Source of the DNA: Acidobacteriota bacterium
GTDB lineage: Bacteria > Acidobacteriota > UBA6911
Length of the DNA: 64,000 nucleotides
NCBI GenBank assembly: GCA_963664705.1
Contig: OY761556.1
Coordinates: 2,048,001 to 2,112,000, forward strand
Reading direction: 5' to 3'
The notes beneath the pieces were generated by a model, which had not been told where the DNA came from, did no database searches, and saw only the letters and a program-made list of their open reading frames with translations. This document shows positions 16,708 through 18,737 of this stretch, piece by piece. Both the position numbers and the translations under genes were made by a program. Within the stretch, counting starts at the first letter, position 1. Every line of letters starts with the position of its first letter.

Positions 16708-16853
16708 CCTAATGCCTCATACTATTTGTCGAGGGCGAGGCCCTTCGGATTGCGGTGGCTTGCCCCCGCCTTCGGCTACTGTAATTATCAAAGGCGTCAG
16801 TAAGCTGCCGGACTCCATGGCGAGCCTCTTCGCAAATGATATACGGCATTGGG
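16708..16853. repeat. Palindromic MITE/REP-like element, complete copy with imperfect terminal inverted repeats
   Basis: Left end CCTAATGCCTCATACTATTTG is an imperfect reverse complement of right end CAAATGATATACGGCATTGGG; related copies at 18835 and 30029. Confidence 0.75.
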
Positions 16854-16923
16854 CGGGACGCGTCCTCATTGTCGGTACACGGTTTTTTGACATTTGCTTG
16901 TTGTAAATGCGACTGGAAGGTGG

Positions 16924-16937
16924 TTGATATAAATCAA
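16924..16937. promoter_or_regulatory. FNR-type binding site
   Basis: Exact TTGAT-ATAA-ATCAA (TTGAT-N4-ATCAA), 24 nt before the ATG at 16962. Confidence 0.6.
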
Positions 16938-16961
16938 ACCATTTGCCCAAGAGAGGAACCA

Positions 16962-18737
16962 ATGAACTGCAAAGCGTTCTTTTTCGCGCCTTTTCTCCTC
17001 CCGTTCCTGTTTGCCGCATCTGCGGCGGCGCAAGATGCAAAAATCACCGCAATGAATCCGAGAGGCATTCTTCCTCTCATACGCAGGATACCGATGGCCC
17101 CGCGGCCAGCAACGCTGGATGGCAAGGTTATTTATCTGGTCGATTCAAGGTATCCGCGCACCCGGGAATTTGTTGAAGAACTGCATAAGGTGCTCCAGGA
17201 ACAATATCCGAAAACCACCTGGGTCCTTAGGGACAAGTTCGGAGGCTATGTCGATGATGATCCAAAGCTGTGGGCCGAAATCAAGGAGAAGGGGCATGGA
17301 ATGATTATGGCCCTTGGCCATTGAAGCACCTGCTCGCCGTCGGTCGTCGGCCATTGTGTGACAGCAGAGAGCTTGGGAATTCCAACAGTGCCAATCATTA
17401 CTCAAAGGTTTCGCGAACTTGTGACCGCCATCGCCTTCAAAAAGGGAATTCCGAGCATGCGGATGGTCTACACACCGCATCCGGTCACAGACCGGCCGGC
17501 GGCGATGTGCCGGAAATACCTGCAGGGCAATGACCCGGTTACAGGCAAGCCGATCCTGCAGGAGATCGTGGAAGGGTTGATGAAACCTGTCTCGAACGAA
17601 GATAAATCGACCGGCTTTCTCCCTCGACCGCCCCGTGTCCGGTTGCTGCCTCCGGACACCGCCGAAAACCTGGACAATTACTTCTATGATAATAACCTGA
17701 CGGACGGGCTTCCGATCGTACTTCCTACGGAAAAGAAGGTAGCTGAGATGCTGAAAGCGACCAGCCGCAAGCCTGACGAGATTGTCGGCAAAATGGCCGC
17801 TTCCACTCCACACGAAGCGTGGGAGTATACCGTTGAAATGGTTGCCGTCAATGCCGTGATGTCGGGAGCAAAGCCGGAATACTTCCCTGCAATTCTCGCC
17901 CTGGCCTCAACCGGTCAGACTGCCTTGGTCAGTTCCACATCCTCCTATGCAAGAATGGCATTGTTCAATGGGCCCATCGTGCAGGAAATGGGCATGAATT
18001 CAGGTGTCGGCGCCATGGGACCTTTTAGCCGAGCCAACGCCACCATCGGCAGGTGCTGGACATTGATGTCCAAGAATATTGGAGGGTCGGGCAAAATCGG
18101 TGAAACCTACATGGGGACTCAAGGGAGCAACCTCAATTATAACAACCTCTGCTTTCCGGAAACCGAAGACGCTTTGCCTCCCGGGTGGAATCCATTTCAC
18201 GTGCAGAAAGGACACAAGCGGTCCGAAAGCGTGGTGAGTGTTTTTGGCGGTTGGAGCCTCAGCGATATCTGCTGGTATACGCCCACGCCCATCTATCAGG
18301 TCATCCGTGGATGGCTGGAGCATTTCTTCTCCACCAGCGTAACCGGAGCCACACTTATCCTGGATCCGATGGTCGCCGCCGATGTAGCCTCCGCCGGGTT
18401 CAAATCCAAGGAGGACTATGCCGATTACCTGATAAGGAATACCGGAACGCCAGCCTGGCTTTATTGGCAAACCCGGCAGGCAGAGCTGGAACAAGCTCGG
18501 AAAGGCGTAGAGCCTTTTGCTACCTATTTGAAGGCTGGCGAAAACGGGGTAATCCCCCTATCGCGTTTTACGGGAAAGCTGGTCTTGGGTGTGCCGGTGA
18601 ATGCATTCGCGTTCGGTACTCTGGCCTCAGACCGCACGCCGATCGAGATCATCGTAACTGGAGGAGGAACCAACACCTATTGGGCTGGCGGCGATTTTAT
18701 GTATTCGGGCAGCGCTTCGATCGACCATTGGAGATAG
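16962..18737 (+). CDS. Exported UGSC-like selenoprotein (Sec at TGA 17322-17324, U121-x-x-C124) fused to a large C-terminal domain, 591 aa
   Basis: Track ORFs 16836..17324 and 17358..18737 are in the same frame, split only by TGA in GH*STCSPSVVGHCVTAESLGIPTV; SECIS-like hairpin follows; GAGGA SD and signal peptide; C-terminal TDGLPIVLPT and RANATIGR motifs. Confidence 0.85.
17336..17351 (+). promoter_or_regulatory. Bacterial SECIS element (putative)
   Basis: GCCG-U-C[GGUC]G-U-CGGC hairpin; G-initiated loop begins 17 nt after the UGA; possible lower stem UGCU/AGCA. Confidence 0.7.

Follow-up and report, generated by a model that had tools for sequence, protein, structure and literature searches.

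The window, that is, the whole stretch of 64,000 nucleotides analysed here, comes from a 6.89 Mb acidobacterial genome assembled into one contig (98% complete, 6% contaminated). It contains a frame of 591 codons that opens with the ATG at 16962, closes with the TAG at 18735–18737 and is interrupted by a single in-frame TGA at codon 121 (Table 1). Translation with table 11 breaks this frame into two ORFs, 16836–17324 and 17358–18737. By eye, an AGAGGA ribosome site precedes the ATG at 16962 and none is visible upstream of the GTG at 17358, in agreement with an earlier sequence-only reading according to which the two ORFs form one gene whose downstream part has no Shine-Dalgarno sequence of its own. 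The read-through product of 591 amino acids carries G-H-U-S-T-C at residues 119–124 (ALGH-U-STC at 117–124). The gene is solitary, with mgsA on one side and a class III aminotransferase gene on the opposite strand on the other; no conserved operon surrounds it, and a scan for promoters and terminators gave nothing above chance. The closest named database records are from Acidobacteriota, at 85% identity. The expectation that standard annotation would split the gene was borne out and appears to hold for public gene callers and other family members too, since 119 of the 120 best database relatives span only 72–78% of the query.

Table 1 Features of the putative selenoprotein gene and its upstream region (window coordinates)
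Feature	Position	Strand	Basis and remarks
Imperfect inverted repeat, candidate operator	16887..16907	+	Sequence; kept in the closest orthologue (L052 only)
Perfect FNR/Crp-type palindrome	16924..16937	+	Unconserved; probably overlaps an extended -10 element
Shine-Dalgarno-like AGAGAGGA	16950..16957	+	Sequence; ends 4 nt 5' of the ATG
Whole gene, UGSC/Unknown_1 long-form selenoprotein (very likely)	16962..18737	+	591 codons plus TAG; AlphaFold2 mean pLDDT 93.5, pTM 0.92
Predicted Sec-pathway signal peptide, residues 1-23, cleavage after A-A-A	16962..17030	+	Sequence, hydrophobicity rule, pLDDT
UGSC domain, about residues 51-214	17112..17603	+	Pfam; predicted flavodoxin-like alpha/beta; predicted homologous to the Sec-bearing part of GrdB/PrdB
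In-frame TGA, Sec121 (very likely)	17322..17324	+	Frame, Sec genes, paralogues, homologues, second-study contig
Cys124, second residue of U-x-x-C, predicted resolving Cys	17331..17333	+	Sequence; paralogues
SECIS-like hairpin	17336..17351	+	11 nt after the TGA; 6-position stem, one U-U mismatch, GGUC loop; comparative support only
Unknown_1 (DGLP...AVMAG...NGP...IGR), residues 226-591	17637..18734	+	Without Pfam/NCBIfam family or clear structural match

The FNR-like box upstream of the gene, which had been taken as a sign of oxygen regulation, is a perfect match, but the regulatory claim found no support, because the perfect box is absent from five of five orthologues and the genome contains 18 perfect FNR sites against 12.8 expected. 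An 89%-identical orthologue keeps the left half of the box only, the right half being lost, and we take the retained part to be an extended -10 element. Four further orthologues lack the box, and none of the other paralogues among the 34 checked has a perfect one. The palindrome is identical to a site located, in the same genome, between two genes that we take, from their N-terminal sequences, to encode a hybrid-cluster protein and a probable Crp/Fnr regulator. The palindrome could be an operator specific to the strain.

Several lines of evidence bear on the reading of the TGA. Profile searches identified two selA, two selB and two selD genes, all scoring over the cut-off, along with two Rfam matches to tRNA-Sec, so that the selA-selD set sought in this genome is present in duplicate. 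In a tblastn search of the genome, 30 of the 34 matches have a TGA at the codon-121 column (one displaced by one column), and in related genomes a TGA lies inside 148 of the 150 matches listed, with 271 more matches beyond these, which argues against a chance occurrence; the codon is conserved across records from Acidobacteriota, Thermodesulfobacteriota and Dehalococcoidales. Cys124 is kept in all 30 TGA-bearing paralogues compared. An assembly error is contradicted by a contig from a second study that spans 17079–17576, including the TGA codon, with 0 letters differing. Among 52 unbroken homologues, position 121 is occupied by Cys in 23, Ser in 9, Met in 6, Gly in 5 and another residue or a gap in 9, although this count is biased because the Sec forms are cut by gene callers and hence missing from the set. 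Thus, the anticipated conservation of the TGA and its replacement by Cys were both found, whereas in 29 of the 52 unbroken homologues this site holds neither Cys nor Sec. One homologue (P0163) has Trp there, and some bacteria recode UGA to Cys, so that the TGA might be a real stop, an error, or a Trp or Cys codon; given the sel genes, the tRNA-Sec matches, the conservation of the TGA across phyla, the second-study contig and the many genes of this genome that end with TGA as an ordinary stop, we consider this extremely unlikely. The gene very likely encodes a single 591-residue protein in which the TGA is read as selenocysteine.

A candidate SECIS hairpin follows the TGA. Compared across 28 related genes picked by hand, its cells are paired in 89.9% of cases, with three compensatory cells; none of 500 shuffles scored as high and the slid controls reached at most 71.4%, although one slid control had a higher covariation score (0.133 versus 0.085). 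Across 54 genes, the mean energy is -7.5 kcal/mol compared with -4.5 kcal/mol for synonymous recodings, with only 16 of these genes, which as kin are not independent, at p<0.05. The hairpin of this gene alone is no more stable than shuffles (z 0.36; p 0.14 against recodings). The comparison of sequences therefore supports a SECIS hairpin at the level of the family and is not significant for this gene alone.

One of the two sets of Sec genes is clustered at about 3,066,800–3,078,300 of the contig (L043:847-12306) and comprises selB, selA, selD, which here is extended at its N-terminus by a Cys-rich part and has a CMD domain at its C-terminus, and tRNA-Sec, which is followed by a SAM methyltransferase gene. 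This cluster adjoins a corrinoid methyltransferase cluster that includes a RACo activator, two URO-D-family methyltransferases and a B12-binding protein. The genes of the other set are scattered, and the selD among them has a TGA of its own; a Sec-containing selD (contig 2046792–2047721) is located just before the window, approximately 17 kb upstream of the gene. In addition, a 72-nt tRNA-like element (L048:3657-3719, contig about 1,625,650–1,625,720), called SeC(tca) by ARAGORN and matched by Rfam as a weak generic tRNA at 43 bits, is probably a remnant or a miscall.

The UGSC relationship of the N-terminal domain was confirmed by a match to Pfam PF24696 (93.1 bits versus a gathering cut-off of 25); the NCBIfam equivalog NF041046 scored 70.4 bits, under its curated cut-off of 125. 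A fusion of UGSC, with its U-x-x-C motif, to a domain named Unknown_1 was described in 2008 by Zhang and Gladyshev (PMC2398784, Fig. S1A), and the Unknown_1 segment in that figure, AVN-x-VMAG...PEY.P...NGP, corresponds by eye to residues 295–338 here. Judged by this correspondence, the gene is a member of a published family without an assigned function, so that the supposed novelty of the protein is retained only insofar as it is uncharacterised, the fusion itself having been published. A 2026 review (PMC13188914) still lists UGSC as uncharacterised and groups it with other selenoproteins next to the Trx-like ones. The protein described here differs from the published fusion in its H-U-S-T-C rather than D-U-G-S-C motif, in the presence of a signal peptide, in lacking Cys at the conserved position of the Unknown_1 segment shown in Fig. 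S1A, in its score under the NF041046 cut-off, and in the 9–58 matches per genome of its genus.

The genome encodes 35 UGSC proteins according to the Pfam model, 31 of which have one TGA and 4 none, and all 35 have the C-terminal Unknown_1 domain. With our protein as the query, 10–44 matches were obtained in each of 18 other genomes of the genus compared with 0–2 in 12 genomes from other families of the class; PF24696 produced 9–54 matches in all 30 genomes of the genus, this one included, and 0–2 in 21 genomes from ten sister genera (any match in 4 of the 21), where matches are not exact gene counts and related genomes are not independent. Another member of the genus (G349), scored alone, yielded 58 matches, 41 of them containing a TGA at positions not checked individually, in an assembly that is 8% contaminated and with fragments among the matches; yet another (G006) yielded 45, of which 33 have a TGA. 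The expansion of the UGSC/Unknown_1 family is genus-wide. Copy numbers from a phylum-wide C-domain search, in which at most six candidates per genome were scored, were left aside. Of 19 further genomes from the genus, 18 carry a selA gene, and three have a second full copy. In a quick unrooted tree of 120 C-terminal domains, the paralogues form many deep subfamilies and recent duplicates, interleaved with sequences from Thermodesulfobacteriota, and the residues around Sec vary among the paralogue subfamilies. In the literature covered by our search, that is, outside subscription journals and bioRxiv supplements, we found no statement of UGSC expansion or export, and the string 'selen' does not occur in the accessible part of 10.1101/2021.04.09.439258. 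Among the paralogues without Sec, a divergently transcribed pair (L021:4081-5871 and L021:6111-7877) has no signal peptide and lacks both Cys positions of the motif, partly or wholly; this pair recurs in another genome (L116).

The protein is likely exported, as had been proposed, judging from a predicted Sec-type signal peptide that scores 2.12 under a hydrophobicity rule, just above the cut-off of 2.0, and from low pLDDT at residues 1–20 of the AlphaFold2 model. The N-termini of the orthologues are signal-like, and, with start codons picked by hand, a simple rule recognises a signal-like hydrophobic N-terminal stretch in 27 of 34 checked paralogues, and one more begins in a twin-arginine-like manner; two homologues from Dehalococcoidales have no such stretch.

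In other Acidobacteriota families, the two domains are mostly encoded separately. Among 17 loci from other Acidobacteriota families, the fusion is present in one, a short UGSC gene with the motif D-U-G-S-C comes directly after an Unknown_1 gene in 11, a short UGSC gene lies nearby in three more, and none was found in two. Seven of the 17 Unknown_1 proteins have an N-terminal redoxin domain (identified by Pfam in six and by a weak NCBIfam ResA match in one), with a C-x-x-C motif in all six of the redoxin-fused proteins inspected. The adjacent split genes and the redoxin fusions suggest that both domains belong to one functional unit, which is linked to a thiol reductant. In the exported long form described here, no redoxin is fused; the genome encodes a DsbD membrane domain and has 10 AhpC-TSA matches, and, by analogy, these may form the donor chain of the exported form.

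A small secreted DUF4352-like family is associated with the long form: eight of its nine genes in this genome adjoin a UGSC long-form paralogue (the family includes L017:5808-6422, L018:5798-6412, L019:5834-6400, L016:5814-6431 and L035:3473-4039), and such pairs are also found at nine loci elsewhere, including Thermodesulfobacteriota records. The gene in the window has no DUF4352-like neighbour. A search of the genome contigs with P0250 gave no match. Apparent enrichment of aldehyde oxidoreductases, esterases, transporters and TonB-type receptors among the neighbours of the paralogues (p 0.004–0.40) was rejected as evidence, because the ten families had been picked after being seen beside the genes and accessory genes cluster anyway.

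The fusion was modelled with high confidence (mean pLDDT 93.5, pTM 0.92), and its N-terminal domain is predicted to be flavodoxin-like: the whole-chain structural matches cover residues 51–214 and are flavodoxin/Rossmann-like alpha/beta folds, none of which stands out (best Z 10.6 and 10.5), with no thioredoxin among the 50 matches listed. This prediction departs from the Trx-like fold assumed for UGSC in PMC2398784. The second of the structural matches (8s7v_H, Z 10.5, rmsd 4.4, 139 aligned) is one chain from the activation complex of methyl-CoM reductase, in which, according to PMC12176620, the proteins McrC and Mmp7 bind clusters through His and Cys, so that H-U-x-x-C might provide ligands for a metal, a metalloid or an Fe-S cluster. 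We regard such binding as highly improbable, given that a protein designed de novo ties with 8s7v_H in Z-score (10.6) and receiver domains come close, that many paralogues have Gly or Asp in place of His120, and that the signals of most copies are of the Sec and not the twin-arginine type, which would argue against a cofactor loaded in the cytoplasm.

As the context of the motif resembles that in GrdB/PrdB, the UGSC profile was compared, using hhalign, with a GrdB/PrdB profile built from 19 sequences that were collected from genomes with PF07355. The two profiles aligned with a probability of 94.8 (E 5e-8) over a segment with the pattern strand-U-x-x-C-helix-E-x-x-G-I-P-T-V...P-x-R...P-H-P, with U and C in register; the match spans only 73 columns, and the profiles were built from few rows (30 and 19). 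When the two Cys columns were masked, the probability was still 77, whereas the controls gave 3.9 for redoxin (5 rows), 1.5 for a receiver domain, 0.4 for the reversed profile and at most 0.4 for ten shuffles. Unlike GrdB/PrdB, the protein has no PF07355 match at E<=0.1 and no adjoining gene for a pyruvoyl partner (no GrdE or PrdA among the scanned neighbours), is likely exported, is fused to Unknown_1 and has dozens of paralogues; a search of the genome for the GRDB family gave no match, and control searches were silent too. Taken together, the model and the profile comparison predict a flavodoxin-like Sec domain that resembles GrdB/PrdB more than thioredoxin. In the literature searched (again leaving out subscription journals and bioRxiv supplements), no statement of a relationship between UGSC and GrdB/PrdB was found. 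The phylum commonly encodes short PrdB-like selenoproteins with U-x-x-C (L059-L081), with PF07355 matches in 77 of 301 genomes, mostly to the C-terminal part; some of them have long C-terminal extensions.

These results bear on the reading of the protein as a general periplasmic thiol-disulfide or peroxide oxidoreductase involved in antioxidant defence or protein repair, the function commonly presumed for U-x-x-C selenoproteins, for which the U-x-x-C motif, the redoxin fusions in the split systems and the Trx-like fold supposed in PMC2398784 would speak. Considering the flavodoxin-like model, with thioredoxin missing from the 50 matches listed, the hhalign probability of 3.9 for redoxin (5 rows) versus 95 for GrdB/PrdB, and the dozens of diverged paralogues with a conserved domain of 370 residues, which would exceed a generic antioxidant need, this reading appears unlikely.

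The C-terminal domain had been described as uncharacterised, and this description stands: it belongs to no Pfam or NCBIfam family. AlphaFold2 models it confidently on its own (pLDDT 93.8), and it has no clear solved relative. VIA-align gave a best Z of 5.4 with rows that cover only residues 206–354 of the C-domain model, so that the lack of a clear match is no proof of a new fold; Foldseek produced no match at E<=0.001 with either the whole-chain or the C-domain model, and sequence searches of solved structures with the whole protein, the C-domain, the N-domain and the GrdB/PrdB profiles gave nothing significant. Arguably, the active or binding site could reside in Unknown_1, as in a lyase, a transferase or a solute-binding protein, with U-x-x-C serving as an optional redox switch or covalent helper. 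The most conserved residues (P255, T256, G302, G337, N359, G363, R364 and E400) are indeed in this domain, position 121 is neither Cys nor Sec in many homologues, paralogues without Sec are kept, with one pair conserved in another genome, and stand-alone and tandem Unknown_1 proteins exist (P0240, P0245). Nevertheless, Gly, Pro or hydrophobic residues occupy many of the conserved positions, and the costly Sec codon is retained in 31 of 35 copies, which makes a site centred on Unknown_1 decidedly unlikely in our estimate. Two Gram-positive-type secreted proteins of about 1,230–1,250 amino acids (P0216, P0218) combine a UGSC domain with the motif C-G-C-G-L-C and two Unknown_1 domains; one of them has a weak LPXTG anchor match.

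The interpretation that we tentatively favour, with a chance of being correct that we put slightly short of even, is that the protein is a periplasmic reductase with a selenol nucleophile. By analogy with GrdB/PrdB, the large C-terminal domain, Unknown_1, would hold a substrate for attack by Sec121; Cys124 would release the product by forming an Se-S bond, which would then be reduced again by a CxxC redoxin supplied by DsbD. In PrdB, according to PMC11229817, Sec attacks the alpha-carbon of the substrate, and a U-to-C substitution abolished activity. The paralogues may have diverged in specificity, each acting on a different substrate; at a guess, these could be oxidised or activated organic compounds outside the cell in anoxic habitats. 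The fold, the GrdB/PrdB homology and the export are predictions from models, profiles and sequences, whereas catalysis, the electron donor and the differences in substrate among paralogues are proposed by analogy alone. Part of the family seems to work without a selenol, given the 29 of 52 unbroken homologues with neither Cys nor Sec and the 4 of 35 paralogues without a TGA. Thus, of the earlier suggestion of a periplasmic selenium redox enzyme fused to an uncharacterised domain, likely export, a very likely selenocysteine and the uncharacterised domain are retained, whereas the function is predicted only and the reductase reading stays a proposal.

More broadly, this uncultured genus could have turned a GrdB/PrdB-related selenol domain and a domain with a new fold into dozens of substrate-specific periplasmic selenoenzymes, a scenario that we consider possible but somewhat doubtful. 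If it is true, these enzymes would perform extracytoplasmic reductive chemistry that we did not find described in the literature, some members of the genus would be at or above the record bacterial selenoproteome, and the expansion would have been overlooked because each copy is split by gene callers. The leads to function are GrdB/PrdB-like chemistry, the redoxin donor and natural Cys homologues such as P0088, which are easy to express.

In view of the expansion, the selenium demand and the selenoproteome size of Acidobacteriota from anoxic habitats have to be estimated anew. The genome contains at least 39 Sec candidates, 31 from this family and 8 others, namely SelD, MvhD/FlpD, formate dehydrogenase, an AhpF-N-like thioredoxin pair, DUF1573, a metallophosphatase-cytochrome c fusion and two rhodanese-domain proteins; this count is a lower bound because heuristic counts of TGA candidates are noisy. 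The total is similar to those of the record selenoproteomes, that is, 39 selenoproteins in Syntrophobacter fumaroxidans (PMC9312934), at least 46 in Desulfosediminicola flagellatus (PMC12013277) and at least 57 over 27 families in the Olavius delta-1 symbiont (PMC1976440). Unlike the Olavius total, with its 27 families and a single UGSC sequence in that dataset, about four fifths of the genes counted here belong to one family.

Approximately 24 aldehyde:ferredoxin oxidoreductase-like ORFs and 21 ORFs similar to xanthine/aldehyde oxidase large subunits represent a second redox expansion in this genome. Among the other Sec candidates, L128:261-1616 is a predicted exported selenoprotein with a C-G-U motif that combines metallophosphatase (UshA-like) and c-type cytochrome domains. 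The two rhodanese candidates (L132:147-1088 and L131:98-553) share a Y-C-T-U-P motif; one of them is fused to a DedA/VTT membrane domain, and the gene of the other directly follows the Sec-containing formate dehydrogenase gene.
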